64,000 bases of DNA from a bacterium (GTDB lineage: Bacteria; Bacillota_I; Bacilli_A; Izemoplasmatales; Izemoplasmataceae), in contig JAGYLV010000001.1 of the NCBI GenBank assembly GCA_018400875.1, positions 77,847-141,846 on the forward strand. Direction: 5' to 3'. The notes below the pieces were generated by a model that saw only the letters and a list, made by a program, of their open reading frames with translations, searched no databases and was not told where the DNA came from. Position numbers and translations under genes: made by a program. Positions 1,354 through 42,928 of this stretch are shown here, piece after piece; position 1 is the first letter of the stretch, and every line of letters starts with the position of its first letter.

Positions 1354-4191
1354 ATGAAAAATGCCATTGCCAAGCAAGCTGAAATCAATCAAGAACTTGC
1401 GACACTCATTGATGAAGATCTCAAGCAAGAACAAGAATTACTCAAATCCCTCATTAAAGAAATTCTTGAGGCGAATGAGAAAATTAAGAATGCGCATTTT
1501 GAACGCGTTCAAGATACGGAAGCTAAATTAAAAGTTCTGAACTCCGAAGTCAAACGAATTCGCCGGACCATCAAAAAACAAGATGATGTGGTCACAAAAA
1601 AACGGCTCGAACTTCTGGGTGAGACCAAAGAAGAGTATTTTGACACATTGGCGGAAATGCGCTTGTCCGATGCGAAAGAGCACTTTGCCAATCCGCTGCG
1701 GAAGCATTTAGCCGATCTCAAACGCCAGTTTAGTCAATCACTTAAATCTTCCAGCCCCGCCATTAAAGACATTCAAGAACCGATAGAAGCGTATTTTGAG
1801 GCGTTAACTGAGAGTTTAGAACACGATTTTTCTTTCAGTCATTTAGCCCTTGATGAATCCTATAACCAGCTCGGTGGAACCACCGATCATCTGCAAAGTG
1901 CGCTGGAACCCCTCGCACCATTCGCAGAAAATATCTTTAAAACGTTTAAAGAGAAGCTCGAAACCCTGCTTTCCTTTTTTGATACGTCTGAACTTGACGA
2001 TCTCGTGGATGAAATTCAATCAACGAAAGCCAATGACCTCGATCAACTCAGCCAACAAAAAAAGGCCATTGATGAGGCTTTAACCGATGAACTAGAAAGG
2101 CTGGATGAAGCCTACTTAACCCAAGTGGATGACGCCCGTAAAGAAGCGCTTCAAGATGCCAATATATCTCTTTCCGAGACGGATAAAACGCTCTTAGATG
2201 CCTTCAAACATGCGGCCAGAGAATGGATTAAATCCGCCGATTCTCATCCATCTGCGCAAGCCTTAAAAACGTTAAAAAGTACCCAAAAAGCGTGGTCCAA
2301 GACACGGCCCGGGAAAACCACCAAGAAAATCGACAAAGCGTTTAAGAAAAACGCATCCAGCATCTTAGATGCAAAATCCCAAAAACGTTCCGAACATCTC
2401 GAGCAATCCTATGAAATCCGGATGCAAGATAAAGAGCGTGAAATCCAAGCCCTCATTGACATCAGCTCACTCAAAATGCGGACGCTTTTGACCTATTTAG
2501 AAAATCAAGAAGAAACACTGCTTTCAACGTTTGCGTTCATGGAAGATCTATTAGAATCAGGCTATGCGCTTGAACTGGCCTTAATTGATTTGGATCACAC
2601 CTTGCAAGTGGCACGCTTCCAAGCCGCCAAACGCACGCAAGAGTTGCGGCTTCAAAAGACCGAACTGTATCGCCGGTACGAACGGATGGTGCAGCGTTTA
2701 GAAGTTGAATCCCTCGATCTTTTAGAGCGCCAGCATATGACGTTTAAAGATGTGCAACTGCAAATGGATTTTGCCCTGGAAAAAGAACGCTTAGAAATCA
2801 ATCGCCTTTATGGGCTGCATAAAATATTAGACAAACGCGTGCAATTTATTGGTAAAAGCAAAGTCAAACGGATGGATGAACTCAAAGAACTCAAATTCCA
2901 ATTGTTCCAAGATGAAGCCGATATTGCCCTCGCCGAAAAAGAATATGACATCCAAGTGTTAAAAGCGCAATCCCTCTACGATCATGAAAAAGCCATCAAT
3001 AAAGTCCAATCCGAACGCATTGATGCGGGGGTAAGGGTCAATAAAGCGATGGTTCAAGCTACGGTCAAACGCCAGGTGAATTTTGCCGATCAACAGATTA
3101 AGTTTGCCGAGGCCGAATATGCCGCCCGGATGGAACACATTGAATACACGTTAAATCAAGAACTGTCTTACGCCGAAGAAACCTTGGGGTATCACGAGAA
3201 AAACTACGCGGCAAAGCGCGAAGAGATCGAGCAAGAATACGAGTCGAAAAAGCACTCCTTGGTCCAAAAGAAAAAGCTCTTTGAACATTCGCCCATGCTG
3301 AAAAAAGTCTTGTTGGAAGAAAAGGAAGTCGACGAAGCGTATCAAGAGCGTCTTCTCGCCTTTGAAGAACAACTGGCCAATGACATTTCCATTAAGCGCT
3401 ACCGCGAGCAAATTCAAAAGGCCCATGATCACGCTGAAAAAGCGCGAAACGATGCTTTAAATCTCCGGGATAAAGACATCGAAAGCTTCACCGCACTCAA
3501 AGAAGAATCCCTCGCCCGTTTAGCCAATGTCGAGAAAATGATGGCGGGTCCTGAACTCTTGCCTTATCATGAAGAAAGCGTAAACGATCAAGCCAGCGAA
3601 CGCCTTCAAGCCATGCTCAAAACCGCGGAAGATTTCCTTGAGGAAAAAACGGCGGAACCCAAAGCCCGCTTAGAAGACATCAAAGGGCGTATTATCGAAC
3701 TGGAAAAAGGCGATGTGGATTCCACGACGGTCAGTGAACTGAGCCGTCAAGAACAAAACCTCAACCAATCCTTTGCCGATCGCGTGCAAGACTTAGAGAA
3801 TACACTCAAAGAAAAACGTGCACTGCTTCTCACTCAAACCGAGCAAGCCCAGGCCCGTTCCCAAACGATCATTGAAGCCATTGACCGGGAACTGGCGGAG
3901 CCTATTCAAGTGTCATCAAATCATCACGCCGCACTCGTCGCAGCGATTGAAGCCAAAGAAAAAACGCTTCAAATCACCCACGAACAATGGCGATCTGAGC
4001 GTTTAATGAAGAAAAACGAACGACTCAACGTGCTTAACCGGACGCAATCGACCATTAAAAACCGGTTGATTGATACGTCGGTGAAAACGCAGATGAAAGT
4101 TGAGAAGATTGAAAATCTTCAAAACAAAGCCATCAGTGAATCGTATAAAATCTTGCACAAGCAATTTAAGAAAGATAAAAAAGCCCTTTAA
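1354..4191 (+). CDS. Large coiled-coil protein (945 aa), function unknown
   Basis: Long uninterrupted ORF with an AAGGAGG-like RBS at 1341-1348, 16 nt after the previous stop. Composition is dominated by E/K/L/Q/A and no enzymatic motif or TM segment was recognised. Confidence 0.65.
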   Translation: MKNAIAKQAEINQELATLIDEDLKQEQELLKSLIKEILEANEKIKNAHFERVQDTEAKLKVLNSEVKRIRRTIKKQDDVVTKKRLELLGETKEEYFDTLAEMRLSDAKEHFANPLRKHLADLKRQFSQSLKSSSPAIKDIQEPIEAYFEALTESLEHDFSFSHLALDESYNQLGGTTDHLQSALEPLAPFAENIFKTFKEKLETLLSFFDTSELDDLVDEIQSTKANDLDQLSQQKKAIDEALTDELERLDEAYLTQVDDARKEALQDANISLSETDKTLLDAFKHAAREWIKSADSHPSAQALKTLKSTQKAWSKTRPGKTTKKIDKAFKKNASSILDAKSQKRSEHLEQSYEIRMQDKEREIQALIDISSLKMRTLLTYLENQEETLLSTFAFMEDLLESGYALELALIDLDHTLQVARFQAAKRTQELRLQKTELYRRYERMVQRLEVESLDLLERQHMTFKDVQLQMDFALEKERLEINRLYGLHKILDKRVQFIGKSKVKRMDELKELKFQLFQDEADIALAEKEYDIQVLKAQSLYDHEKAINKVQSERIDAGVRVNKAMVQATVKRQVNFADQQIKFAEAEYAARMEHIEYTLNQELSYAEETLGYHEKNYAAKREEIEQEYESKKHSLVQKKKLFEHSPMLKKVLLEEKEVDEAYQERLLAFEEQLANDISIKRYREQIQKAHDHAEKARNDALNLRDKDIESFTALKEESLARLANVEKMMAGPELLPYHEESVNDQASERLQAMLKTAEDFLEEKTAEPKARLEDIKGRIIELEKGDVDSTTVSELSRQEQNLNQSFADRVQDLENTLKEKRALLLTQTEQAQARSQTIIEAIDRELAEPIQVSSNHHAALVAAIEAKEKTLQITHEQWRSERLMKKNERLNVLNRTQSTIKNRLIDTSVKTQMKVEKIENLQNKAISESYKILHKQFKKDKKAL

Positions 4192-11938: not shown

Positions 11939-12283
11939 CTTGCATTGCATAAGCCATGTTCTGTCCCCTTAAAAAAGGGTGGCAACCATTTATCTGTACA
12001 ATGTACCTCGGCGTTAAGTTCAGTTCCTCACGCCAAGTGCCCCTACCAAAATTTGGGTTTCTAGCTTGCGGGGTTTACCCGTTCCACCTCTTTTATTGCT
12101 AAAAGAGCTCGTCTCTGTGGCACTTTTAAAGATACTCAAGACTTATAAAGCCTCTTTCTCAGCCGTCACCCTTGCGGGTGCATAGAGTTATGGTTTCCTC
12201 TATCACAATCACTACAGGCAATCGCAGCCTGTGCTAGCATGGACTTTCCTAACCATTACTGGCTCGGTTGCCTACAATGCAAG
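11939..12283 (-). ncRNA. rnpB: RNase P RNA, type B (Bacillus type)
   Basis: The minus strand carries AGGAAAGTCCATGCTAGCAC, AAGTGCCACAGAGACGAGCTC, GGTAAACCCCGCAAGCTAGAAACCCAAAT..GGTAGGGGCAC and ACAGAACATGGCTTATGC. P1 pairs CTTGCATTG (5' end) with CAATGCAAG (3' end). Confidence 0.93.
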
Positions 12284-16506: not shown

Positions 16507-16603
16507 AGGGTTTCCTCCTTTAAATGATTATTCGGACCGGATGCCACGTAAATCTCATGGAGGTGGGATAAACCTCGCAACCGGCGCAACCACTATTATA
16601 GCA
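16507..16603 (-). promoter_or_regulatory. rpsO promoter (TGCTATAAT at 16595-16603) and ~85-nt structured leader, a candidate S15 autoregulatory element
   Basis: The extended -10 overlaps the ribF stop. The leader contains GC-rich pairing segments (gcgccggttgcg, ccacctcc/ggaggaa) that reach the RBS. Its role as an S15 leader is inferred from position only. Confidence 0.35.
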
Positions 16604-17534
16604 TAAATTCAGGTGAGGGCAAGACAAGTTTCAAGGGATTTAATGCGGCCTTTGAATCGACCGCATCCCGGTCGATTTGGGCGATGAGATCACCGACACT
16701 GTCAAACTTCTGTTCGTCTCTCAACCACTGGACAAAATAGGTCGTGATGACTTCTCCGTATATGGTTTGATCAAAGTCAAATAAATAACTTTCCACACTC
16801 AGTGGATGGGCCGCATTCAGCGTTGGATTATGCCCCACACTGGTCATCGATGGATACAAGGTATCGCCCACCCGCGTGATGCTTGCATACACGCCACGTT
16901 TGGGGGTGATGCTGCTGGAAAGTTCAATATTCGCAGTCGGATAGCCAATCAGACGCCCCTTTTTCTCCCCATGAATGACTTCACCGGTAATCGAAAAATA
17001 CCGGCCCAAACGCTGATGCGCATCTTGCATTTTGCCTGCTTGAATGAGCTCTCGAATGATAGTTGAGCCAATTTTCTGGGAAGCAAGGCGCCTTTCTTCC
17101 ATCACGTGCACGTGAAAGTTACCTTCTTCTTTTAACGTCTGGGTCGTTCCTAATCCTCCGTGGCCAAATCGGAAATCAAATCCACACACTAACATGTGGA
17201 CGCCATTTAAATACTGCTGGATGAACGTAGACGCCTCCACCTTTGATAAGGCTTTATCAAACGGTAAAACAAATACACGCTGGATGCCGTAGGCTTTAAG
17301 TAAAGCGATTTTTTCTTTAAGTGGGGTGATGTATTGAAAATCCATCTCAAAAATGACGCTTTTCGGATGGCGATCAAACGTGATGACCACCGGCGTTTTA
17401 CCGGCCTTTTTGGCTTCATCCAGCGTCACTTGAATCAACGCTTGGTGGGCCGTGTGAACCCCATCAAAAAACCCGATGGAAGCGACCATGGTGTCATCAA
17501 GCATATGGGGGGTTAAAGTGTCAGTCATGGTCAA
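16596..17534 (-). CDS. ribF: Bifunctional riboflavin kinase / FMN adenylyltransferase
   Basis: 312 aa with an N-terminal FAD synthetase domain (GFFDGVH) and a C-terminal riboflavin kinase domain (GYPTANI). Confidence 0.9.
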   Translation of the reverse strand: MTMTDTLTPHMLDDTMVASIGFFDGVHTAHQALIQVTLDEAKKAGKTPVVITFDRHPKSVIFEMDFQYITPLKEKIALLKAYGIQRVFVLPFDKALSKVEASTFIQQYLNGVHMLVCGFDFRFGHGGLGTTQTLKEEGNFHVHVMEERRLASQKIGSTIIRELIQAGKMQDAHQRLGRYFSITGEVIHGEKKGRLIGYPTANIELSSSITPKRGVYASITRVGDTLYPSMTSVGHNPTLNAAHPLSVESYLFDFDQTIYGEVITTYFVQWLRDEQKFDSVGDLIAQIDRDAVDSKAALNPLKLVLPSPEFML

Positions 17535-29470: not shown

Positions 29471-31729
29471 TTACTCGACTACCATTCCATCTTCAAGTTC
29501 AACTTCAGAGGTGAGTAACCGCTGAATGGCATCGAAGGAGAAGATTTCACGGAGCGTTTCACCGGTGGATGGGTTGACATATTCAAGCTCAATGTTTGCT
29601 TGAGTCGTGTCAAAGTCATCGCCCCAGTTCAGGGTAAAGCCAGATGTGTTCAATGAGTTAAAGGTATCTAAGAATCCTGCGGCATCTAAGGTTGAACCTG
29701 AGATACCACCGAAGCCCATGTCCGTTTCACCAGGAATGATGAAGTTAAAGTAGTTATTTGGGAATGGTTCGGCTTGGATTACGATATCAATACTAATGTC
29801 TAGCTCCTCATTAACAAACAGTTCTTCGAGTTCAGCTTCGATGTACTCCGCACCGAGTTCTGATCCTTGAGAGTTTGCTTGGATAACGAGTTGAAGTTCA
29901 ATCACATCACCTTCAGCATAATCGCCTGCGGCGACAGCGTCTTCAACGGCACTGTCAAAGAATGCTTTAGCGGCATCAGGGTTGTATCCTTGCGTGGATG
30001 GTGAAAGGCCCTCTAAGACTGTGGCACCATATTCGGTATCACGGAATGGAACCCCACCGGCTGGATCAACTAAGTATGCAGGTGTGAAGTAGAACTGCGC
30101 AGGTTCAGCGGTTCTTTGAACGTCGACTGCAAGTTCTTGACGGTTAATACCGAAGTATAACGCGCTACGGAAGTCTTCATACGCAAGAATCGGTTCAGGG
30201 ATTAAGGTTGAATCAGGGAATTGTTCTCTTTGCGATTCGACAGTACCGTGTGCATTAATGTTCATACGGAATACGGTAGCCCCTGGAGCAAAGCGGATTC
30301 CTGGGTAGGATTGATATTCATCAAACCGTGATGCAGGAAGTCCAGTCGCATCTAAACGACCTGTAATAAAGCTTTGGAATGCGATGTCAGCATCGTTAAT
30401 AACTTCGAACGTATACCCGGTATAGAATGTCCGGTTAGGATCGTGGAAGTTAGGGTTTTCTTTGAGTCGTAAAATCCGGTCAGCTTCATAGGTTTCAAGA
30501 TAGAAACGGCCACTGTAGGAAGTCGTTTCAGCACTCGTTCCGTATTCGTCACCGACTTCTTCATAAAGGTCTAAGTTGATTGGGGTCATGACGAAACCGG
30601 ATAACCAGTAAATGACGTTCCATTCACTCATGAGTGGGACAAATTCAAAGACAATGTTGTTGCCTTCCACAGAGATACCGACTTCATCCCATTCTGCATC
30701 ACCGTCAACGTATTCTTGCATGTTGACGATTTCTTGCGCTGGGTTCAAGAAGTCACCACCGCCGGAAATCGCACGGAACCAACCGTTATCCACGGCAAGT
30801 TTATAGGTATCTAAGAAATCTTGAGCGGTAATATCGCCGGCTTCAGCGCCTGTATGATCGGTCCAAACAAGTCCATCACGAACTGGGACGCTCCATACAT
30901 TGGCCACTTCAGTCCCAAAGACTTCTTGAGCATCCGATGGGGTAGGCATGCCTGAGGCCATCGAAGGTTGAAGTTCGAAACCTGAGAAATCAGAGTTGTA
31001 GTTGAAGAAATAAAGCGCATCTAAGAATGTCGTGATGACATCACTGGAGATGGAATCTTCATAAATCCATTGGTTAAGGGTCGCTGGGTTTTCAGTGAGG
31101 CGCGTACGGTAAGTGTATTCACCGGCTTCACCCGCTTGACCATCATCCATAATGACTGAAGAGTCATCTTGACTCATCGATGCGTAAGCAATCCCAAAGC
31201 CCATAACTGGGTCATAGCCTTCGGTTGGAAGTTGCATACGATCTGAGAATAAGTTGAATGATGATGAGGCCCATAAGGGAATCCCACCAATATGGTTGGT
31301 GACTAAGTAACGTTCTGCGGCGGCAAAGAATTGATGTTTCAAATCAACCGGAGCAAATTTGAAATCATAGACGCCACTGGCCGGAACAAAATCGCCAAGC
31401 GCTGGCTCATCGGGTTCTTCTTCAGCCGATTCAACGGTTACAGTCCGCGTGACTGAGACGCTTTCACCTTCAGAGTTTTCGACACTATACGTAAGTGTAT
31501 ACGTGCCTGCTGCGTTGACATTGACAGACCCAGAAACTTCGATATCCGAAGTTAAATCACCATCATTTTCATCGTCAGCACTAACCCCAGCAAGTGGATC
31601 AAAACTTTCACCCACTTCTAAGGTTGCATTTCCGGTGCCTGAAATGGTTGGAACACTTGGATCGCCAGCACATGCTGCGAGTCCTGCGACAAGCACGAGA
31701 AACGATAAAGCTAATAAAACTTTTTTCAT
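29471..31729 (-). CDS. oppA: Family-5 (oligopeptide-type) solute-binding lipoprotein with an N-terminal Ig-like domain
   Basis: Lipobox LAAC. An N-terminal ~80-aa Ig-like repeat (GTYTLTYSVENSEGESVSVTRTVTV) precedes a large acidic SBP body. Substrate is unknown. Confidence 0.65.
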   Translation of the reverse strand: MKKVLLALSFLVLVAGLAACAGDPSVPTISGTGNATLEVGESFDPLAGVSADDENDGDLTSDIEVSGSVNVNAAGTYTLTYSVENSEGESVSVTRTVTVESAEEEPDEPALGDFVPASGVYDFKFAPVDLKHQFFAAAERYLVTNHIGGIPLWASSSFNLFSDRMQLPTEGYDPVMGFGIAYASMSQDDSSVIMDDGQAGEAGEYTYRTRLTENPATLNQWIYEDSISSDVITTFLDALYFFNYNSDFSGFELQPSMASGMPTPSDAQEVFGTEVANVWSVPVRDGLVWTDHTGAEAGDITAQDFLDTYKLAVDNGWFRAISGGGDFLNPAQEIVNMQEYVDGDAEWDEVGISVEGNNIVFEFVPLMSEWNVIYWLSGFVMTPINLDLYEEVGDEYGTSAETTSYSGRFYLETYEADRILRLKENPNFHDPNRTFYTGYTFEVINDADIAFQSFITGRLDATGLPASRFDEYQSYPGIRFAPGATVFRMNINAHGTVESQREQFPDSTLIPEPILAYEDFRSALYFGINRQELAVDVQRTAEPAQFYFTPAYLVDPAGGVPFRDTEYGATVLEGLSPSTQGYNPDAAKAFFDSAVEDAVAAGDYAEGDVIELQLVIQANSQGSELGAEYIEAELEELFVNEELDISIDIVIQAEPFPNNYFNFIIPGETDMGFGGISGSTLDAAGFLDTFNSLNTSGFTLNWGDDFDTTQANIELEYVNPSTGETLREIFSFDAIQRLLTSEVELEDGMVVE

Positions 31730-31958: not shown

Positions 31959-31987
31959 CAAAAAAAGCACTCCGTTTCGGAGTGCTT
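31959..31987 (-). terminator. Intrinsic terminator after nqrF
   Basis: Stem agcactccg/cggagtgct followed by T7 on the minus strand. Confidence 0.8.
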
Positions 31988-31997
31988 GATCCATTGC

Positions 31998-33083
31998 TTA
32001 AGCAAAACTGTCGTAATAGGTATGTTCTCTAGGGAGATCGTGTTTATTGAGGACGGCGATGCAGGCATGAATCATCCCGGGGGACCCACAAAGGTAGGCT
32101 TCCGAGCCTGCCAAGTCACCGGTCATCCGGTCTAAGACATCGGTAATGAGGCCGGTTTCACCGTCCCAGTTATCTTCCGGTAAGGGTTCTGAAAGAGCGG
32201 GAATGTATTCAAAGTTCGGAAATTCTTTTTGCAGTTCAACAAATTCTTCGGTGTAATAGAGATCTTTTTTGGTTTTTGCCCCAAAGAAATAGCGAACTTT
32301 ACGCGGCATATTGAGGTCTCTTAAACGGTAAAGAATCGAGCGGATCGGTGCTTTACCCGACCCCCCCGCGATACAGACAATATCGCGATCGGATTCTTCT
32401 CTTAAGTAAAAGTCGCCATACGGCCCCGTGATTTTCATCGGGTCACCCGGTTGCATCACTTCGTGAATAAAGGTCGTGGCGACCCCTTTATGGACCAAAC
32501 GGACTAAGAATTCCACGTGGTCTTTGACTTTCGCATCGCCCGCGAAGGAATACGCCCGGACCGCTTCCACCCCAGGAATGATGAACTGCGCGTATTGTCC
32601 GGGATGAAAATCCAAGGTTTTCGGATTAATCATTTTAAAACGGACCAGTTTGATGTCATATGTGAGGTCTTCTAAGGCCGCCAGTTCGACGTCGTATTCT
32701 TTGGCGCCAAATAGACTTTCGGGAATTTCAATTTTAGTATCTTGAGCAATCCGGGTTTGGCAAGAAAGTCTGATGCCGTTGGCCGCATCTTTCGGGCCAA
32801 TGAAAGGTTCTTCCGTCGGTTTAAGATCAAAGGCACCTTCGGTTACTTTGACTTTACATAACCCGCATGTCGCTTTTCCTCCGCACGCGGAAGGAATATA
32901 TATTTGATTTTTAGAGAGTATATTGAGTGCGGTATCTGATTCATTGATTGGAATTTGCAAGGAATCATTGACCGTTAATATTTTTTCACCACTGTTGCCA
33001 AAGGCGGTTTCGGCGGCAACGAGTAATAGACTCATTAAGACAAGCATGCCAATGAGGATGCTAATGACAATAATCGGTTCCAT
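31998..33083 (-). CDS. nqrF: NqrF-type subunit: TM anchor, 2Fe-2S ferredoxin domain and FAD/NADH-binding reductase domain
   Basis: 361 aa with an N-terminal TM helix, CGGKATCGLC...C (plant-type 2Fe-2S), RAYSF (FAD) and GGSGKAP (NADH). Confidence 0.85.
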   Translation of the reverse strand: MEPIIVISILIGMLVLMSLLLVAAETAFGNSGEKILTVNDSLQIPINESDTALNILSKNQIYIPSACGGKATCGLCKVKVTEGAFDLKPTEEPFIGPKDAANGIRLSCQTRIAQDTKIEIPESLFGAKEYDVELAALEDLTYDIKLVRFKMINPKTLDFHPGQYAQFIIPGVEAVRAYSFAGDAKVKDHVEFLVRLVHKGVATTFIHEVMQPGDPMKITGPYGDFYLREESDRDIVCIAGGSGKAPIRSILYRLRDLNMPRKVRYFFGAKTKKDLYYTEEFVELQKEFPNFEYIPALSEPLPEDNWDGETGLITDVLDRMTGDLAGSEAYLCGSPGMIHACIAVLNKHDLPREHTYYDSFA

Positions 33084-33092
33084 CGTTTCCTC

Positions 33093-33677
33093 CTAAAAGA
33101 ATGAGAGTCCAGTAAAGCCAATAAAGGCTAAGGATAAAATCCCCATGATGATGAATACAATCCCGCGGCCGGCGAGGCCTCTTGGGACGGTGGAATGATT
33201 TTCCATTTTTTCACGAATGGCCGCAATCAAGATAATCGCTAAGGCCCAGCCAATCCCGGCCCCGAGTGAAAATGTGGCGGTTTCTGCAAAGTTATAGCTC
33301 CGGTTCACAAAGAACTGAGACACGGCTAACACGACGCAGTTCACCGTAATGAGGGGGAGAAATAATCCAAAGTTGTTATACATTCTGGGAGATACTTTTT
33401 CAATAAAGATTTCTAAAAACTGAACGGTCGTCGCAATGGTAATGATGAACACTAAAATGGATAAACGCTCAGTCCCAGTCGCTTCTAACAATAAATAAAT
33501 GGGGTAGTTAATGACCGCGGTTAAAAAGACCACGAAAATAACGGCTAAGCCCATCCCTTTAGCATTTTTTACATTCGTCGAGATGGCAATGAGTGGACAC
33601 ATCCCTAAAATAAAGATGAGGGCAATGTTTCTAGAAAGGACCGATTCAATAAAAACTTCAATTAAATTAATCATCAT
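33093..33677 (-). CDS. nqrE: NqrE/RnfA family membrane subunit
   Basis: 194 aa, 6 TM helices, with conserved cysteines in GMCPLIA and NCVVLA. Confidence 0.8.
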   Translation of the reverse strand: MMINLIEVFIESVLSRNIALIFILGMCPLIAISTNVKNAKGMGLAVIFVVFLTAVINYPIYLLLEATGTERLSILVFIITIATTVQFLEIFIEKVSPRMYNNFGLFLPLITVNCVVLAVSQFFVNRSYNFAETATFSLGAGIGWALAIILIAAIREKMENHSTVPRGLAGRGIVFIIMGILSLAFIGFTGLSFF

Positions 33678-33684
33678 CTACCCC

Positions 33685-34320
33685 CTATTCCGCTGCCACT
33701 TCAAAGTTTTGGGCCCATTCACGGACGCCCCAAATGATTAAGCCGAGGACGAAGAATCCACCAGGGGCTAAGGCCATAACGGTCCAGTTCACCCAGGTTT
33801 CTGGCATAACACGGAAGTTAAGGATGGTTCCAAAGGCTAAGGCTTCACGGATAATCGCCACCGCGATTAAAATCCAGGTATAACCCAAAGAGTTGGCAAT
33901 GCCATCAAAGAACGTATACTTCATCGGATTTTTAACGGCAAAGGCTTCGGCGCGTCCCATGACGATACAGTTGGTGACGATTAAGCCCAAATACGCTCCG
34001 AGCGCTGCGGCAATCACCGGGAAATACGCTTCTAAAAACATTTGCACCATGATCACAAAAGCCGAAATGATCACCATGTAAGTGATCATACGGACCCGGG
34101 CAGGAATCACTTTACGGACCATGGAGACCACCAAGGAACTGGCCGTGACCACAAATGTAACGGCAAGACCCATGGCAATCGCGTTCTCCACACGGTTGGT
34201 CACGGCTAAGGCTGAACAAATCCCCAGTACAGCCACGACAATGGGGTTTTCTTTGAATAAGCCATCTTTGGTGATGTTAAACCATTTTGTGTATTGAATC
34301 TTTATCCAAAACTTTCGCAT
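33685..34320 (-). CDS. nqrD: NqrD/RnfE family membrane subunit
   Basis: 211 aa with GICSALAVT and TNCIVMGRAEAF motifs. Confidence 0.8.
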   Translation of the reverse strand: MRKFWIKIQYTKWFNITKDGLFKENPIVVAVLGICSALAVTNRVENAIAMGLAVTFVVTASSLVVSMVRKVIPARVRMITYMVIISAFVIMVQMFLEAYFPVIAAALGAYLGLIVTNCIVMGRAEAFAVKNPMKYTFFDGIANSLGYTWILIAVAIIREALAFGTILNFRVMPETWVNWTVMALAPGGFFVLGLIIWGVREWAQNFEVAAE

Positions 34321-34919
34321 TATTCGCCTCCGAGTGTGGCTTGATACGCCGGTATAACTTGTTCATAACTATCGTTTAGAATGGTTTGGAACGCACTGGA
34401 TGTTGAAGTTGCTCCGGTAATCGCATCGACTTGATTGGGTGCGCTTGCGCCTTCTTTTAATACTTCAACGATGGGGTCAAACACGACCCCTTCGTATTTT
34501 GCGAGGTAGGGAATTTCAACAATCCGGCCACCGAGGCCCGGGGTTTCTTGTTGGGCAAGGATGCCGATATTTTCAATGGTTCGAAGATCTTCGTTAAGTG
34601 TTAAAACACCAATGATCGGTCCCCATACACCACCGCCTTCAATTTCAAAGCTGATGCTTCCTGTGTCTGGGTTACGGTAGACTGGAACATCCACCCCATC
34701 GATGGTGAGTTCCACTTTTTCGACGTTCGCGGTGAACGTGTCATATATATTTGAGGTGTTATATTGGATTTCAAACGCATCTAATATTTTAGATTGTAAT
34801 AACGCTTCTTCGTTGCGCGTGATACGCTCTGAGGTCAAGACGTCCATGCCAATGAGCAAGGTCGATGTGATAACCCCCATCGCCACGACAAATCCCATAA
34901 TTTTTAAAATTCGGTTCAT
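34320..34919 (-). CDS. nqrC: NqrC/RnfG family FMN-binding subunit
   Basis: 199 aa with an N-terminal TM anchor and the flavinylation motif D-A-I-T-G-A-T-S near the C-terminus. Confidence 0.8.
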   Translation of the reverse strand: MNRILKIMGFVVAMGVITSTLLIGMDVLTSERITRNEEALLQSKILDAFEIQYNTSNIYDTFTANVEKVELTIDGVDVPVYRNPDTGSISFEIEGGGVWGPIIGVLTLNEDLRTIENIGILAQQETPGLGGRIVEIPYLAKYEGVVFDPIVEVLKEGASAPNQVDAITGATSTSSAFQTILNDSYEQVIPAYQATLGGE

Positions 34920-35857
34920 GCCGCTTCCTCCTTACCTGTTAGCCATGCATCAATGAGAGCCCCCACGGCGCTCATAATGATGATGGCAAAAATAAAGCCT
35001 TCTGCAAACGTCGCAAAATAGCGAATGATAAAGGTGATGAAGGCGACGCCGGCCCCATACAGCCATATGGCTTTTTTATTCACAGGGGCATGGACAGGGT
35101 CACTGGCAATGAATATGGCCCCAAAAAGTAATGAGCCCGTAAACACTGAAGGAATCGTCCCCCCGGTCGCGCCGAAGAGTTCGAATATCCCAGCAGTCAC
35201 GATATAACTGACTAAGATCGACACCGGTAAGCGCCAATCAATGACTTTTAAGAAGGCTAAAATGGCACCTAAGCCAATGAGTAATAGTCCGAAGGTTTCC
35301 CCGGTGTTGCCCGGTACAAACCCTAATACTAAATCACTCAAAGGATAAAATGTCGATCCACTCGCATTAATCTGATGCAGCGGCATCACAGGTGCTAAGG
35401 CATCAAGTGAACTTTGGGAGAATGGATTAAACCAACCAAATGTTTGGGGGTCATACCACCCAAAGATTAAAGCTGGAAACGAAATCATTAAAAACATAAT
35501 CCCTACAGCGGCGGGATGGAAAATGGTTTTTCCGTAACCACCGAATAATTGTTTGGCAAATAAATTTCCGAATACAACGCCCACTCCGGCCATCCACAAT
35601 GGCGCACTGGGGGGAAGCATTAACGCATAAAGTAAAGGGAAGACAAGCCAACCTTCATCGATTTTTTTCTTTTTAGTACGGGCAAAGACATAATCAACCC
35701 CTACACTAAGGGCGATGGAAAGCCCCGCGATTACTAAGACATACCACCCAAAAATCATAAAGGATGCAGCTAAAATAACCCCTAAGGCGGCCTCTAAATA
35801 GAGCAGTTTTTTACCGGTAATAGCTCGGCTGACAAACGCAGGTTGCGAGTCACTCAT
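34916..35857 (-). CDS. nqrB: NqrB/RnfD family membrane subunit
   Basis: 313-aa polytopic protein that overlaps the next gene by 4 nt. Its size is closer to RnfD than to NqrB. Confidence 0.75.
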   Translation of the reverse strand: MSDSQPAFVSRAITGKKLLYLEAALGVILAASFMIFGWYVLVIAGLSIALSVGVDYVFARTKKKKIDEGWLVFPLLYALMLPPSAPLWMAGVGVVFGNLFAKQLFGGYGKTIFHPAAVGIMFLMISFPALIFGWYDPQTFGWFNPFSQSSLDALAPVMPLHQINASGSTFYPLSDLVLGFVPGNTGETFGLLLIGLGAILAFLKVIDWRLPVSILVSYIVTAGIFELFGATGGTIPSVFTGSLLFGAIFIASDPVHAPVNKKAIWLYGAGVAFITFIIRYFATFAEGFIFAIIIMSAVGALIDAWLTGKEEAA

Positions 35858-35901: not shown

Positions 35902-35910
35902 ATTATAGCA
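35902..35910 (-). promoter_or_regulatory. Extended -10 element TGCTATAAT upstream of the nqrB-F operon
   Basis: Plus strand reads attatagca, 45 nt upstream of the ATG at 35857. Confidence 0.5.
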
Positions 35911-35968: not shown

Positions 35969-36778
35969 TTAATTTATCGAATGGGTCGTCATATACCTTT
36001 CCGCAAAGTCAATGATTTCACGCATGGAAATCAAACGACTATCGGCTTGGCCCACCATGCCTTTATGGAGTGTTTGTTCCTTTTCAAATGCACGGCCACA
36101 TCCTTGAAAAGTTTCCGTGGAATAATGATAGTCCCACACGTAACGGATTTTAGCGCCTGCTTGGGTGTTGACATAGTAAAGTTCTTTTTCACTTTTTTTC
36201 GTAGCCACTAGACTCTCGGCATAGTGAAGGGCTGTTAGAGTGTCATAGTGTGTCCCAATCATTAATAGTTTGAAATCAGCGTGATACATCCGGTGCAATG
36301 GACTCTCTTCATCAAACGCATGCCCTGGGTGATGCGGATGTAGGATGGCTTCTGCCTTTTTCCCCCAAGCTGCAAAGGCACTTCGGGGATGACTTGAGCG
36401 CTTCACTCCTGGATACGTCCTAAAGTATTCGGCCACCCGGCCGATGCCATAAGCCGGGGTTTTTAAGGGATCATAGGCCGGCATATGCGCTTTAATCTTT
36501 TCGACCCATTCCACAGGAACAGGGGGATTTTCCCACATAGCGGGATCGGATAGATTGCCCGTTTGAGAAGGCATCACGAGTGTGCCTTCTTCGCTTATCA
36601 CCGTCATTAAGGCTTCAATGAGCGTTCGCTCACCGCCAATGATCCAGCCGATTTTGGCTAAACTCACATGAACCATGACTGAGTCGCCCGGGGATAGTCC
36701 CAAGGCTTTTAAATCTTCCACCAAATCCGTCTTGGAAATGGGGGATTTAGTTTTTTCAATGACCTTAAGCTCACTCAT
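35969..36778 (-). CDS. Aminoglycoside 3-N-acetyltransferase family protein, AAC(3)/YokD-like
   Basis: Conserved blocks VHVSLAKIGWIIGG, GTLVMPSQT, NPPVP and SHPRSAFAAWG. The ATG at 36778 overlaps the upstream TGA (ATGA). Confidence 0.8.
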   Translation of the reverse strand: MSELKVIEKTKSPISKTDLVEDLKALGLSPGDSVMVHVSLAKIGWIIGGERTLIEALMTVISEEGTLVMPSQTGNLSDPAMWENPPVPVEWVEKIKAHMPAYDPLKTPAYGIGRVAEYFRTYPGVKRSSHPRSAFAAWGKKAEAILHPHHPGHAFDEESPLHRMYHADFKLLMIGTHYDTLTALHYAESLVATKKSEKELYYVNTQAGAKIRYVWDYHYSTETFQGCGRAFEKEQTLHKGMVGQADSRLISMREIIDFAERYMTTHSIN

Positions 36779-38322
36779 AGACTGGCCTTTTCTAGTTGAA
36801 GTTCGATGGGACAAATATCTTCATAAAAATCGCGTTCGTGTGAGACGAGAATCAAGGTGCCTTCATAGGCAATAAGCGCTTCTTTGAGTGCTTCTTTGAT
36901 TGCCACATCCAAATGGTTCGTCGGTTCATCTAAGATGAATACATTGCTTTTGACCGGCCAAAGTAAGGCGAGGCGCACTTTGGATTGTTCGCCCCCCGAG
37001 AGGGTTTTAATCGGTCTTAACGCTTTATCATTGCGGATGCCAAACCGGGCGAGCGTTGCGTAGACTTTTTTTCGGTCATACTCTGGGAAATGACTTTGGA
37101 CGATTTGATAAGGATTTAAGGCAGGGTCTAGGTGATGGTCTTGAGAAAAATAATTAACCTGGGCCGTGTCAATCCAAGTCACTAAGCCTTCTAACGCAGA
37201 GTGTTGATTCATGATGGTCCGAATCAATGTGGTTTTCCCGACCCCATTTTCACCGGTAATCGCCCATTTTTCGCCGCGCCGAATGGTGAGGGTAATGGGT
37301 TCAACCAGCGCTGAGTCATACCCAATGGATAGATCGTTAATCACACACACCTTTTCGCCCGTAGGGGCGGCCATGGGAAAGGAAAAATCATAGGCTTTCG
37401 CTTTTTCTAAGGGATCAATGCGTTCGAGTTTAGCCAGTTGTTTGCGTCGACTTTGAGCGCGCCTGGTCGTTTTGGCTCGGGCGATGTTTTTGGCAATGAA
37501 TTCTTCCGTTTTTGCGATGTATTTTTGTTGGGCTTTAAAGGCTTTTTGATGTTGCTCGGCTCTTAACGTGCGTTCTTTGAGGTAAAAGCTGTAATCTCCC
37601 CGGTAAACTTGAATGGATTTTTGTTCAAGCGCCCATATCGTCGTGGCGATTTCTTCGGCAATCCGGGATTCATGCGTCACGACGATAAACGCATTGGGCA
37701 ACCGTTTTAAATATTTTAATAGCCAATCGACTTGGCCTTCATCTAAAAAGTTTGAGGGTTCATCCAAGAGCATAATGTCGGCATTTGACAATAGTATTTC
37801 AGAGAGTTTGACTTTTGAGCGCATGCCACCCGATAAGGTTCCAATGGTTTGTTCTAAGACCGAAGCCTCTAAGCCTAAACCCGTAATGACTTTTAAGATT
37901 TCGGTTTGATACTGATAAAACTGAGAATCATTGAGTGTTTCTTGAATCCGACTGGCTTGGCTGATTTTTTTTAATTGAATGTCCGCATCTGCACGGGCAG
38001 CCTCGTCATATAACTGGTGCATCCGTTTTTCTAAATCAAAAAATTCTTGGTAAACGCCGGATAAATAATGAATGACCGTTTCATCTTTGGGTAATACTAA
38101 ATGTTGATCCAAGGCTTTAAAGACTTTGTGGGGATGAAAGGTAATTAGACCGGAATCGGGGGTGAGCTGATGCATTAAAAGCCGGACCAAGGTCGATTTC
38201 CCCGTTCCATTGGGACCAAGTAAAACCACATGCTCACCCGGAAGTAAACGTGCGGTTATGGTTTCAAGGAGCGCAGTCCCATCATAATTAAAAGTTACGT
38301 CTTTCAAATCGATTAAACTCAT
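36775..38322 (-). CDS. ABC-F family ATPase (two NBDs, no TM domain)
   Basis: 515 aa with two Walker A motifs (GPNGTGKST, GENGVGKTT), two signatures (LSGGMRSK, LSGGEQSK) and a basic interdomain linker. Confidence 0.85.
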   Translation of the reverse strand: MSLIDLKDVTFNYDGTALLETITARLLPGEHVVLLGPNGTGKSTLVRLLMHQLTPDSGLITFHPHKVFKALDQHLVLPKDETVIHYLSGVYQEFFDLEKRMHQLYDEAARADADIQLKKISQASRIQETLNDSQFYQYQTEILKVITGLGLEASVLEQTIGTLSGGMRSKVKLSEILLSNADIMLLDEPSNFLDEGQVDWLLKYLKRLPNAFIVVTHESRIAEEIATTIWALEQKSIQVYRGDYSFYLKERTLRAEQHQKAFKAQQKYIAKTEEFIAKNIARAKTTRRAQSRRKQLAKLERIDPLEKAKAYDFSFPMAAPTGEKVCVINDLSIGYDSALVEPITLTIRRGEKWAITGENGVGKTTLIRTIMNQHSALEGLVTWIDTAQVNYFSQDHHLDPALNPYQIVQSHFPEYDRKKVYATLARFGIRNDKALRPIKTLSGGEQSKVRLALLWPVKSNVFILDEPTNHLDVAIKEALKEALIAYEGTLILVSHERDFYEDICPIELQLEKASL

Positions 38323-39099: not shown

Positions 39100-39903
39100 T
39101 TACGCTTCCACGTATCCTTGTTCTTCAGAGAGCCATGTCGATGAAACATTAAGCATAACTCCATAGAAGATTTTGGATGTCACGTCGGCGATGGTGTAAA
39201 GCACTTGTTGTGCGACAATCGCTAAGGCTGCTACTTCGGAAGCTGAGCCACCGAATAAAGGCATTACGTAAGCGATTGGGTAGATGGTCCATGCCACATA
39301 GAATAAAGGTAAGATGGCGGCGAAGAGTGGTTCTGCTTTGCTGCCTTTCATATTAGCACGGCCTTCTTTAATCACTTGTGTAATGAGGACTAATACCCAA
39401 ATGTAGAAGAGTGTTGAAATGACACCCCAGACGATCCACATAGTGATATCAGTTTCAGCGCCACGGCCTGGTTCATAGTACTGACCAATGTAACCAGTAA
39501 TGATCATGAGTGACCCACTGGCGGTGAAACGCACTAAGTATTTCTTAAATGCGGCACCTGCAATCCCAGCTACGAAAAGAATTTGGATGAGAAGATGTGG
39601 GACATCAATCAACCAGTTCAAGTAACGGAATCCGTTGGTGAAAGTGCTTTCGCCAGAAGCCACATATTGGCTACCTTCTAAGACGAATGCATCGGCCCAA
39701 CTTTGGGATTGTAAGAATAAGAGTAAGAACGCTGATACCATAACGACACCAGAAAGTACACTGGAAGGACGATATCTTGGTGCGTTATTTTTAATGGTTA
39801 ATACGAAATAAAGAAGTGCTGCCCCCATAGCAGCAAATCCAAAGGTTAAAACATGTTGCACAACTTCAAATTGCCATACTGCTAAGCTGCTTAAACCTGT
39901 CAT
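39100..39903 (-). CDS. Microbial (type-1) rhodopsin with an NDQ motif, predicted light-driven Na+ pump (KR2-like)
   Basis: 267 aa, 7 TM helices. Helix C reads R93-Y-L-N96-W-L-I-D100-V-P-H-L-L-I-Q107. Helix G reads D240-V-T-S-K244 (Schiff-base lysine). Codons were checked in the DNA: AAC at 39618-39616, GAT at 39606-39604, CAA at 39585-39583, AAA at 39174-39172. An AAGGAGG RBS precedes the ATG. Confidence 0.9.
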   Translation of the reverse strand: MTGLSSLAVWQFEVVQHVLTFGFAAMGAALLYFVLTIKNNAPRYRPSSVLSGVVMVSAFLLLFLQSQSWADAFVLEGSQYVASGESTFTNGFRYLNWLIDVPHLLIQILFVAGIAGAAFKKYLVRFTASGSLMIITGYIGQYYEPGRGAETDITMWIVWGVISTLFYIWVLVLITQVIKEGRANMKGSKAEPLFAAILPLFYVAWTIYPIAYVMPLFGGSASEVAALAIVAQQVLYTIADVTSKIFYGVMLNVSSTWLSEEQGYVEA

Positions 39904-41304: not shown

Positions 41305-42273
41305 ATGTTTGATTTTGCTGTTGAGACTCAATCCAAACAATCACTTTTTGAATCGCAAAAACATTTTGATTTTGCGATCATTGGGGGCGGCCCAGCGGGC
41401 ATGAATGCCGCACTATATGCCATCCGTAAAGGATTATCAGTGGCCGTCTTTTCTTTAGAAATAGGCGGACAACTTCACAATACCAGTGAAGTAGACAATT
41501 ATATCGGAATAGAGCATACGACGGGCGGGAAGCTTTCTGAAGCGTTCCACCATCATGTCTTAGAACTCGGTGTACCCATTAAAACTGGACACCTGGTCAC
41601 CAAATTGGAAAAACCCGATGATTTTCACATTACCTTAGATAACAATGAAGTCTACACCGCTAAGACCGTCCTTTATGCAACGGGCGGGGCGCCAAGGAGA
41701 CTCGGCGTTCCGGGTGAAGAAGAATTTGCGAATAAAGGGGTATCTTACTGCACCACCTGTGATGCGCCGTTCTTCAAAAATGAACACGTCATTGTCGCAG
41801 GCGGGGGTAATAGTGCCGCTGAATCCGTGGTTGACCTCGCGGCGTGGGCGTCCAAAATTACCGTGGTTCACCGATCACAGTGGCGCGCCGATCAGATCAT
41901 TCTTGATCAGTTCAAAAATATCGAGGGCCTGGAAATCAATTTAGAGACGCAAATTCTAGAAATTTTCGGAGATACGAAAATGCGCGGGGTTAGAGTCTTA
42001 GATAAACCGTCCGGTAAAGAACGGGTCATTGAGGCCGATGGTATGTTTGTGGAAATCGGTAATATCCCCAAAAGTGACTTGCTCAAAGGTCTTGTGGACT
42101 TAAATGAACAAGGTGAAGTGATTGTATCACGCGATCAAGAAACATCACTCCCTGGCCTCTATGCGGCGGGTGATGTCACCACACAACCATACAAACAAAT
42201 CATCATTTCTGCCTCGGAAGGCGCCGTTGCGGCGCTGGCAGCCACCCAATATTTAATGCATCATAAAAATTAA
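41305..42273 (+). CDS. Thioredoxin reductase / AhpF C-terminal-like flavoprotein disulfide reductase
   Basis: 322 aa with GGGPAG (FAD), redox-active CTTCDAPFF and GGGNSAAE (NAD(P)H). Confidence 0.8.
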   Translation: MFDFAVETQSKQSLFESQKHFDFAIIGGGPAGMNAALYAIRKGLSVAVFSLEIGGQLHNTSEVDNYIGIEHTTGGKLSEAFHHHVLELGVPIKTGHLVTKLEKPDDFHITLDNNEVYTAKTVLYATGGAPRRLGVPGEEEFANKGVSYCTTCDAPFFKNEHVIVAGGGNSAAESVVDLAAWASKITVVHRSQWRADQIILDQFKNIEGLEINLETQILEIFGDTKMRGVRVLDKPSGKERVIEADGMFVEIGNIPKSDLLKGLVDLNEQGEVIVSRDQETSLPGLYAAGDVTTQPYKQIIISASEGAVAALAATQYLMHHKN

Positions 42274-42283
42274 GGAGATAAAC

Positions 42284-42928
42284 ATGGAAAAATTATTGAA
42301 TGAAGAAGTTACCAAACAAGTTAAAGAATATTTAAACCCGATGAAAGAATCGGTTACGATGGTTCTTTTCACCCAAGAAGGGGCGTGTAATACGTGCCAA
42401 GAAACGCGTCAGCTCTTAAGTGAAGTGGCCGCCTTAACCGACAAACTCACCCTAGTCGAAAAAGATCTAAATAAAGACGCAGCTCTTGCCGAAGAATACG
42501 GCGTGACCATGACCCCAAGTTTTGTCATGCTTGACAAAAAAGACACCTACAAAGGCGTCAAATTTAACGGCATCCCTGCCGGGCATGAAATCAATTCATT
42601 CTTATCGGCCCTGATGGATATGTCCGGCATTGATTTTGGCTTAGCTGAAACCATCGGCTCCCGTTTAGATAAACTGGATAAACCCGTTAATATTAAAGTC
42701 TTTGTGACATTATCGTGCCCCCACTGCCCCGGGGCGGTATCCAATGCACACCGTTTAGCAATGAGTCATCCACACATTGAAAGTGAAATGATCGAAGCGC
42801 AAACCTTTGGCGAACTTTCCCAAAAATTCAATGTATCCGGCGTCCCAAAAATCATCATCAACGATGAACACGAACTCGTCGGCAATCAACCCATCCAAGA
42901 GTACTTAAAAACCATCGAAGCCTTATAA
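42284..42928 (+). CDS. Glutaredoxin-like / protein disulfide oxidoreductase (PDO, AhpF N-terminal-like; two thioredoxin folds)
   Basis: 214 aa with CNTC in fold 1 and CPHCP in fold 2. The block FNGIPAGHEINSFLSAL resembles PDO/AhpF-N. Confidence 0.7.
   Translation: MEKLLNEEVTKQVKEYLNPMKESVTMVLFTQEGACNTCQETRQLLSEVAALTDKLTLVEKDLNKDAALAEEYGVTMTPSFVMLDKKDTYKGVKFNGIPAGHEINSFLSALMDMSGIDFGLAETIGSRLDKLDKPVNIKVFVTLSCPHCPGAVSNAHRLAMSHPHIESEMIEAQTFGELSQKFNVSGVPKIIINDEHELVGNQPIQEYLKTIEAL

Follow-up and report, generated by a model that had tools for sequence, protein, structure and literature searches.

Operons made of nqrB, nqrC, nqrD, nqrE and nqrF without nqrA, hence coding for Na+-NQR, the NADH:quinone oxidoreductase that translocates Na+, deprived of one of its subunits, were remarked upon in genome papers of 2014 and 2018. 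They were noticed in Pseudothermotoga thermarum and P. lettingae (PMC4148951), in Clostridium ultunense (PMC5924567) and in Candidatus Izimaplasma ZiA1 and Acholeplasma palmae (PMC6256511), the electron acceptor being called unknown in each case. These remarks are annotation only, with no cofactor-site analysis, phylogeny or function; the main study of Nqr evolution leaves the A-less operons out (PMC4014512), a 2025 review of the RNF and NQR complexes makes no mention of them, and the literature yielded genome-paper remarks and no functional study of an A-less NqrBCDEF complex. The operon type is thus already known at the level of annotation, and the complex itself is uncharacterised. Here we consider an operon of this kind, lying at 35857..31998 on the minus strand of a 64-kb stretch of DNA (contig JAGYLV010000001.1, positions 77,847 to 141,846; this whole stretch is the window in what follows) from a wall-less, soda-lake-type member of the Izemoplasmataceae (Mycoplasmatota). 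Its five genes, in the order B-C-D-E-F, encode NqrB/RnfD-, NqrC/RnfG-, NqrD-, NqrE- and NqrF-type proteins. We would give a probability of about one half to the view that they form a functional, self-contained five-subunit Nqr-type complex, driven by NADH and probably pumping Na+, in which the electron path would end at the flavin mononucleotide (FMN) of NqrC and NqrB would be non-redox. As far as alignments can tell, the novelty lies in the repeated loss of the flavin sites of NqrB under purifying selection, while the core formed by D, E, F and C stayed frozen.

The nqrB/rnfD-like gene (35857..34916; this and the four other genes are on the minus strand) encodes a polytopic membrane subunit of 313 residues, of RnfD-like length and belonging to PF03116. 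It lacks about 89 N-terminal residues of Vibrio cholerae NqrB, its residue 38 aligning with V. cholerae residue 127, and the region of the quinone and 2-heptyl-4-hydroxyquinoline N-oxide (HQNO) site, that is, the N-terminal amphipathic helices of NqrB, is absent from it. Alignment locates a degenerate flavinylation loop, D152-A-L-A-P-V-M158-P-L (35404..35378, minus strand), in which the covalent-FMN motif reads LDALAPVMPL, to be compared with LDGVTTATPL in Clostridium tetanomorphum. Met158 (35384..35386) stands where V. cholerae NqrB has the FMN-accepting T236, and four independent alignments agree on this. The roles of the other residues were transferred by alignment from V. cholerae NqrB, where T162, N200, N203 and D346 are riboflavin ligands and F338 and F342 gate residues (PMC10643135), and they were scored in about 100 sequences. 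At three of the four ligand positions, where references have T, N and N, the minus-strand window gene has F73 (35639..35641), T111 (35525..35527) and H114 (35516..35518); the fourth ligand is kept, D253 of the window being the counterpart of D346. The window clade consequently reads F, T, H, M, D at T162, N200, N203, T236 and D346, positions that are invariant, together with G198, in 13 references drawn from Nqr, Rnf and the loci L087 to L089 (labels L001 to L086 denote Mycoplasmatota loci, and L087 to L091 further loci used for comparison). The exact T-N-N-T-D signature is found in 187 of 264 diverse members of the superfamily, with the deviants concentrated in the A-less family of Mycoplasmatota. 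On a tree built from D, E and F together, the acceptor threonine of B disappeared on at least five separate occasions; beside every such loss stands a sister lineage that keeps it, with a bootstrap of 99-100 in four cases and of 78 for the L039/L056 pair. The substitutions differ from one loss to another (M, L/I/P, N, A), and the lineage of L057, L061, L072 and L081 has the whole loop deleted. The original prediction, made from the sequence of the window, had proposed a reduced complex adapted to a different electron acceptor; with the quinone-site region, the FMN acceptor and most of the riboflavin ligands of NqrB gone, this is very probably right. The missing flavinylation threonine of the NqrB-like protein had escaped its notice. 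Since both flavin signatures are lost along with the quinone-site helices, the canonical return path through NqrB seems unlikely in the window clade.

The remaining subunits tell of conservation. The nqrC/rnfG-like gene (34919..34320) encodes 199 residues, with an N-terminal transmembrane anchor and an extracytoplasmic FMN-binding domain (PF04205). Its flavinylation motif, D165-A-I-T-G-A-T171-S-T-S (34427..34398, with Thr171 at 34407..34409), is intact and aligns with VDGLSGATLTS of V. cholerae NqrC; all 81 family members (81 of 81) possess Thr171, whose flavinylation is predicted. The nqrD-like gene (34320..33685, 211 residues) and the nqrE/rnfA-like gene (33677..33093, 194 residues), both of PF02508, encode the two halves of the pair that holds the intramembrane [2Fe-2S] cluster, and C35 and C118 of D, together with C27 and C114 of E, align with the ligands of this cluster in V. 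cholerae and in Rnf. In Acetobacterium woodii Rnf the residues proposed for Na+ binding or gating are R67-E115, L22 and L103 of RnfE, and L22, P107, L108, T110, N112 and R154 of RnfA (PMC11889175). Conservation is complete in D for C35, C118, R77, E125, L32 and L113 (81/81), and in E for C27, C114, L24, P108, L109, T111, N113 and R155 (84/84), so that the tested counterparts of the A. woodii residues are 100% conserved, except for the position matching RnfA E158. The nqrF-like gene (33083..31998) encodes 361 residues, made of a transmembrane anchor, a plant-type [2Fe-2S] ferredoxin domain and a domain resembling ferredoxin-NADP+ reductase that binds flavin adenine dinucleotide (FAD) and NADH; Cys67, Cys73, Cys76 and Cys108, RAYS and GGSGKAP are conserved in 86 of 86 loci. 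Columns at least 95% conserved amount to 10% in B, 16% in C, 41% in D, 43% in E and 35% in F. These alignments show an intact predicted cofactor chain from NADH to the FMN of NqrC, together with an intact D/E core. As to the supply of flavins, the window also carries ribF (16596..17534, minus strand), a bifunctional riboflavin kinase/FAD synthetase, by which riboflavin can be turned into FMN and FAD.

The family assignments are far beyond chance. In Pfam, B matches PF03116 (NQR2_RnfD_RnfE) over residues 4-307 of 313 (E=1.3e-66, 225.5 bits), C matches PF04205 (FMN_bind; E=6.9e-16, 59.1 bits), D and E match PF02508 (Rnf-Nqr; E=3e-59, 200.4 bits and E=1.3e-50, 172.3 bits, respectively) and F is composed of Fer2, FAD_binding_6 and NAD_binding_1. 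All five proteins score below the NCBIfam equivalog cut-offs of the Nqr and Rnf families, bar the RsxE model NF009070, for which D, at 188.2 bits, is slightly over the cut-off of 184. Thus B reaches 141.7-145.5 bits with the nqrB models (cut-offs 349.9-414) and 162.5 with rnfD TIGR01946 (207); C 66-68 with the NqrC models (nqrC 66.6, cut-off 144) and 54-57 with those of RnfG (rnfG 53.7, cut-off 102); D 224.8 with TIGR01939 nqrD (244.85) and 177.2 with rnfE (213.4); E 180.8 with nqrE (247.55) and 172.1 with rnfA (229.3); and F 251.5 with TIGR01941 nqrF (295), with none on the Rnf side. Among solved structures, B is matched by RnfD 7zc6_D at 105.1 bits against 94.6 bits for NqrB 7xk3_B, and C by NqrC 7xk3_C (E=5e-9); Vibrio Nqr and clostridial Rnf score 156.8 and 156.1 bits with D, 150.5 and 142.4 bits with E. 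F is matched by NqrF 8a1t_F at 174 bits in two separate stretches, the protein being about 40 residues shorter than canonical NqrF, inside the FAD domain. By such scores the subunits are roughly equidistant from the Vibrio Nqr and clostridial Rnf structures, and the complex is neither a standard Nqr nor a standard Rnf. The original prediction is borne out in its description of the locus: open reading frames and Pfam families agree with the positions and sizes it gave to the five genes, the motifs it listed are all present (DAITGAT, GICSALAVT/NCIVMG, GMCPLIA/NCVVLA, CGGKATCGLC, RAYSF and GGSGKAP), B and C are of Rnf-like size next to an NqrF-type input module, and the profile searches that it called for have C, D, E and F favouring Nqr models and B favouring rnfD, nearly all of them below cut-offs.

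The five genes follow one another closely, with a 4-nt overlap between B and C, a 1-nt overlap between C and D, and gaps of 7 nt between D and E and of 9 nt between E and F, Shine-Dalgarno-like sequences being present at these two gaps; the five reading frames are intact and translationally coupled. No NqrA/RnfC-like open reading frame was found by phmmer in any frame of the 64-kb window, the queries being NqrA of L090, RnfC of L091 and the A/C-like protein of L087, and the same queries gave a single match, of 19.9 bits in L034, over the 86 Mycoplasmatota loci. Nor did Pfam reveal rnfB, apbE or genes of quinone biosynthesis among the other 51 window reading frames of at least 150 residues, and no Fer4-rich reading frame lies within or beside the operon. 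The absence of nqrA, rnfC and rnfB from the window had been anticipated correctly. The closest homologues belong to metagenome-assembled genomes (MAGs) of Izemoplasmatales and Acholeplasmataceae, the nearest being a Candidatus Izemoplasmataceae MAG at 97% identity. Scanning GTDB species representatives with the NqrF-type protein yielded 393 confirmed relatives, of which the best 80 are all Mycoplasmatota and take in the cultured Liberiplasma polymorphum and Paracholeplasma vituli, as well as three complete genomes. The order B-C-D-E-F on one strand is kept in all 81 Mycoplasmatota loci with enough sequence, from at least 80 species. An A-, C- or B-type gene, or one for ApbE, was sought in the flanks of the Mycoplasmatota loci and none was found; across 80 loci these flanks carry variable housekeeping genes, none of them common to all. 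Candidate accessory or partner genes recognised by eye beside the operon (RidA-like, phosphoglycerate-mutase-like, ABC ATPases, a solute-binding protein, aldehyde dehydrogenase) were rejected, as none is shared. A constant gene order within variable flanks that are devoid of A, C, B or ApbE genes makes the five genes a stable, self-contained unit, typical of free-living Mycoplasmatota.

To place this unit, we built a neighbour-joining tree (36 sequences, 187 columns, 200 bootstraps) in which the paralogues NqrD/RnfE and NqrE/RnfA serve as each other's root, with V. cholerae, C. tetanomorphum and A. woodii, taken from PDB alignments, L090 (canonical nqrABCDEF) and L091 (rnfCDGEA) among its members; it should be read as a neighbour-joining tree of sparse sampling, as should the others used here. 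In both halves of the tree, operons that contain NqrF all split from Rnf (bootstrap 93 and 98), and the group sister to the Mycoplasmatota clade (88 and 99) unites canonical Nqr with three variant operons (78 and 80). The window complex would accordingly be placed on a deep, NqrF-containing branch of Nqr type, outside canonical Nqr and not within Rnf. Two of the variant operons, L088 (Spirochaetales) and L089, are A-less B-C-D-E-F operons followed by a conserved 153-residue gene; their NqrB keeps all flavin residues, and they group with canonical Nqr and with L087. The additional gene (L088:7020-7478, L089:7075-7539) encodes a soluble protein of 152-154 residues, placed directly after the operon, 63% identical between the two loci and without a Pfam match. 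Neither the window nor any Mycoplasmatota locus examined encodes a homologue of it, and for this reason it was rejected as a partner of the window complex. In L088 it is followed by genes for a Fur-family regulator, rubrerythrin, desulfoferrodoxin, a ferritin-like protein and rubredoxin, which hints at a link to the handling of oxygen or reactive oxygen species or to a rubredoxin-type acceptor. The third variant, L087 (L087:1216-7129; CAYFYU010000026.1, GCA_964347455.1), is a mosaic operon of six or seven genes. The first encodes a 466-residue subunit resembling NqrA (92 bits, against about 40 with RnfC), which has two 4Fe-4S motifs and only a trace of an NADH/FMN domain; the others encode a B of 362 residues with a partial NqrB-type N-terminus and all flavin residues, C, D, E, an NqrF-type protein of 364 residues and a 123-residue reading frame.

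How might such a complex work? Electrons would pass from NADH to FAD and to the [2Fe-2S] cluster of NqrF, then to that held by NqrD and NqrE, and finally to the covalent FMN borne by the outward-facing domain of NqrC. This outward transfer would probably be coupled to Na+ export by NqrD/E, by analogy with the model drawn for A. woodii Rnf, where Na+ pumping resides in RnfA/E, the stroke is complete once the electron reaches the FMN of RnfG, and RnfD only conducts electrons (PMC11889175). In the least certain step of the proposal, the return path through NqrB would no longer serve electrons in the window clade, the subunit being retained as a scaffold, as a docking site for NqrC or as an element of the ion path. 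Electrons would then leave the FMN of NqrC at the cell surface, with dioxygen, free flavins, Fe(III) or an extracytoplasmic reductase as candidate acceptors. Taken as a whole, a one-way chain of FAD, [2Fe-2S], intramembrane [2Fe-2S] and outer-face FMN that pumps Na+ while exporting the electrons of NADH, with NqrB non-redox, is a tentative picture, which we hold to be possible rather than probable.

Several explanations would make this picture superfluous. Mycoplasmatota undergo genome reduction, and the evolutionary rate of B and C is about double that of D, E and F, as if the lesions of NqrB marked the pseudogenisation of a functionless, decaying remnant. However, the ratio of nonsynonymous to synonymous rates (dN/dS, Nei-Gojobori) between the window and L007 is 0.023 for B, 0.027 for C, 0.011 for D, 0.008 for E and 0.021 for F (dS 0.27-0.81); it lies at 0.01-0.06 for all five genes within the clade and, at larger distances, where the values for B and C are two to three times those of D, E and F, it is still at most 0.16. 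Frames that are intact and translationally coupled, and a Met158 state common to relatives down to 84% identity, point in the same direction, and decay was rejected as effectively refuted by these ratios. It is very improbable, too, that we are dealing with an ordinary Na+-NQR or Rnf whose nqrA, or rnfC and rnfB, are encoded elsewhere. Only 64 kb of the genome were inspected, and related Izimaplasma genomes have been reported with complete rnf operons elsewhere (PMC6256511); against this stand the constancy of the five-gene unit in the 81 loci, those of three complete genomes included, the lack of the very region of NqrB that contacts NqrA and forms the quinone site, and the position of D and E outside Rnf, with all five proteins below the equivalog cut-offs of both families. 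The rnf operons of the relatives have their own D, G, E and A genes, and according to the papers that describe them, the genomes of Pseudothermotoga and C. ultunense are wholly devoid of nqrA (PMC4148951, PMC5924567). The original prediction had seen in the operon what might be expected of an evolutionary intermediate between Rnf and Na+-NQR; such a form would date from a time when NqrF had been recruited and NqrA was not yet in place. A deep branch, sister to canonical Nqr, a B subunit closer by score to RnfD models, the other four being closer to those of Nqr, and B, C and F proteins that are short, Rnf-like or pre-canonical in size, are all in keeping with this idea. Yet NqrA is homologous to RnfC, though devoid of cofactors (PMC12174285), so that the common ancestor of Rnf and Nqr had this subunit, and secondary loss is the best reading of the A-less state; as the A-less L088 and L089 group with canonical Nqr and L087, there was probably more than one such loss. 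L087, where an NqrA-like subunit with 4Fe-4S motifs co-occurs with NqrF, is a better candidate for the Rnf-to-Nqr transition. The tree of D and E, which answers the earlier call for a phylogeny, speaks for a deep branch of Nqr type and against a place inside Rnf, and the ancestral stage is improbable.

A further explanation bears on the fate of NqrB itself, and we regard it as possible, if somewhat unlikely. The U-shaped path would be kept, with a flavin bound to NqrB non-covalently, or with the FMN of NqrC swinging into the NqrB pocket, so that menaquinone or a cytoplasmic redox protein would be reduced while Na+ is pumped. NqrB is indeed universally retained and clearly under strong purifying selection in the window clade, hence keeping an important role, and it could bind flavin non-covalently. 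An AlphaFold model of a two-subunit NQR/RNF-like system that also lacks the NqrB acceptor has the NqrC-type FMN sampling the NqrB-type pocket (PMC10979944), current structures put the quinone on NqrB and not on NqrA (PMC10643135, PMC12174285), and some Izemoplasmatales possess complex I together with cytochrome bd and, by implication, a pool of quinone (PMC8397711). On the other side, the window clade has other residues at three of the four positions of riboflavin side-chain ligands, positions that hardly vary in the rest of the superfamily, deletion has removed the FMN loop from other lineages, and B is without the N-terminal helices that form the quinone/HQNO site. Returning to a path that ends at NqrC, we must gather what weighs against it besides the selection acting on NqrB. 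The B subunit of the window clade keeps D346, both gate phenylalanines (F338 and F342), D397, and E144 in the form of Asp (Glu or Asp in the family); this conservation, like the acceptor threonine of most family members, also speaks for the U-shaped path. Most family members outside this clade retain the canonical acceptor motif, so that their NqrB probably still carries FMN, and it may be doubtful that the family has one shared mechanism. Eleven residues downstream in the loop of B, S166-G-S-T169 loosely resembles a site for ApbE; it lacks an upstream Asp and is not kept in L008, 87% identical, and we judged it probably coincidental as an alternative flavinylation site. No electron-acceptor candidate was found in the window or in conserved neighbourhoods, and a reduced, outward-facing flavin would yield reactive oxygen species with dioxygen. 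An alternative model, drawn from V. cholerae Nqr, places Na+ transport in NqrB (PMC10643135). Finally, ion specificity and pumping itself are things that we only infer from sequence.

The neighbourhood of the operon adds a second element to a Na+ economy. Four genes upstream, at 39100..39903 (minus strand), lies a gene for a microbial rhodopsin of 267 residues (PF01036, 132 bits), whose N-D-Q motif reads YLNWLIDVPHLLIQ and whose retinal-binding lysine stands in the context DVTSK. It scores 205-207 bits against entries for Na+-pumping rhodopsins of the KR2 type, the best match being 8jh0 at 236 bits, and may be regarded as a candidate light-driven Na+ pump encoded by a member of the Mycoplasmatota. 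Synteny between the rhodopsin gene and the operon is confined to the window clade (L003, L005, L006, L008, L010), the very clade with F/Y-T-H replacements in NqrB. Soda-lake and alkaline saline sites are where relatives were obtained, and Na+-binding F-ATPases have been predicted for MAGs of Izemoplasmataceae (PMC10308030). An NqrBCDEF complex and a rhodopsin of NDQ type would thus both feed Na+-based membrane energetics.

Signals at both ends of the operon had also been part of the original prediction. The strong terminator is there, as an intrinsic-terminator-like hairpin at 31987..31965 (minus strand) seen both in a terminator scan and in the sequence, with a 10-bp stem (6 G-C pairs), a 3-nt loop and a T-run, which starts 11 nt past the stop codon of nqrF. 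The promoter holds in part, as a putative extended -10 element matching the consensus, TGCTATAAT (35910..35902, minus strand), 45 nt upstream of the nqrB-like start codon and followed by a GGTG-type ribosome-binding site; it has no good -35 hexamer, and is missing from the promoter-scan list for that reason. Immediately upstream of the operon is a gene of the aminoglycoside 3-N-acetyltransferase family (35969..36814, minus strand; PF02522, 253 bits), which overlaps the 3' end of an ABC-F ATPase gene (36775..38322, minus strand) with two ABC_tran domains and an ABC_tran_Xtn domain; this pair, kept in the relatives L003, L005 and L006, may serve antibiotic tolerance. Just downstream, 29471..31729 (minus strand) encodes an unusually large substrate-binding lipoprotein of an oligopeptide ABC transporter (752 residues), in which an N-terminal bacterial Ig-like domain precedes SBP_bac_5, judging by how the identical gene of L002 is annotated. 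Between the rhodopsin and RsgI-like genes and a MatE transporter, 41305..42928 (plus strand) encodes a thioredoxin-reductase-like flavoprotein of 322 residues and then a 214-residue protein with two thioredoxin-like domains, a pair preceded in relatives by a CsoR-type metal-sensing repressor. Farther away, ribosomal protein L20 (50604..51362, minus strand; residues 3-109) is unusually long at 252 residues, its C-terminal extension ending in a Rho_N domain (216-252), and a class B RNase P RNA (11946..12279, minus strand, 277.6 bits) fits an origin in Bacillota or Mycoplasmatota. At the start of the window two adjacent large reading frames, 37..1338 and 1354..4191 (plus strand), of 433 and 945 residues, match no Pfam family at E<=0.001; their region has a strong positive AT skew of 0.25.

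Two structural groups disagree on the route taken by Na+, one placing it in NqrB (V. cholerae, PMC10643135), the other in the RnfA/E pair with RnfD as an electron wire (A. woodii, PMC11889175), and we may look at the A-less family as a natural experiment in which the flavin sites of NqrB were repeatedly removed and the cofactor and pump residues of D, E and F, like the flavin of NqrC, were frozen. If the complex still pumps Na+, this would bring strong independent support to the D/E model and define a minimal pump; if the chain is one-way, the pumping stroke would reside in NqrD/E (RnfE/A) and be complete once the electron reaches the flavin of NqrC/RnfG. Should electrons exit at the outer-face flavin, fermentative, wall-less bacteria would possess a new energy-conserving route to dispose of NADH, together with an extracellular electron conduit. 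A practical consequence is for annotation: at least 80 species of Mycoplasmatota carry the labels 'NADH:ubiquinone reductase' or 'RnfD' for proteins that probably do neither job as named.

We can now set the window complex beside the known systems. With the Na+-NQR of V. cholerae it shares the NqrF input module, the four-cysteine D/E pair, the flavinylation threonine of C, the NqrB/RnfD fold and the order B-C-D-E-F; unlike it, it has neither NqrA nor the N-terminus of NqrB, T236 is a methionine and T162, N200 and N203 are F, T and H, while NqrC has 199 residues against 257 and NqrF 361 against 408. With RnfCDGEAB (C. tetanomorphum 7zc6, A. woodii 9eri) it has in common the D, G, E and A subunits, which are homologous and close in size, its B and C being of RnfD and RnfG length, and the RnfA/E residues proposed for Na+ binding or gating are conserved in its D and E (PMC11889175); in contrast with Rnf, it is without RnfC, with its NAD+ site, and without RnfB, with its ferredoxin site, it uses NqrF as input module and it does not conserve the flavin sites of RnfD. 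The published A-less operons, compared through their descriptions in the literature, agree with it in gene content, in order and in the lack of nqrA, those of Izimaplasma and Acholeplasma belonging to the same phylum (PMC6256511), whereas L088 and L089, from outside Mycoplasmatota, differ by their full set of NqrB flavin residues and their extra gene. L087 resembles it in combining an NqrF-type gene with a B-C-D-E core of the Nqr-type clade, and departs from it by its NqrA-like subunit with 4Fe-4S motifs and by an NqrB that is partly extended at its N-terminus and keeps every flavin residue. A likeness of another order is found in the two-subunit NQR/RNF-like system (Meheust et al., 2021, eLife; 2024 preprint), which also associates an NqrB/RnfD-like protein devoid of a flavinylation site with a flavinylated NqrC/RnfG-like protein, and for which a one-way export from NAD(P)H to extracytosolic FMN has been proposed (PMC8238504, PMC10979944). 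There, an NAD-binding domain (PF00175) is fused C-terminally to the NqrB-like protein, NqrD, NqrE and NqrF are absent, and the hosts are mainly Actinobacteria and members of the Candidate Phyla Radiation. The window locus was rejected as a case of this system, its B having PF03116 only, its NAD-binding domain belonging to a separate NqrF-type protein, and D, E and F being present.

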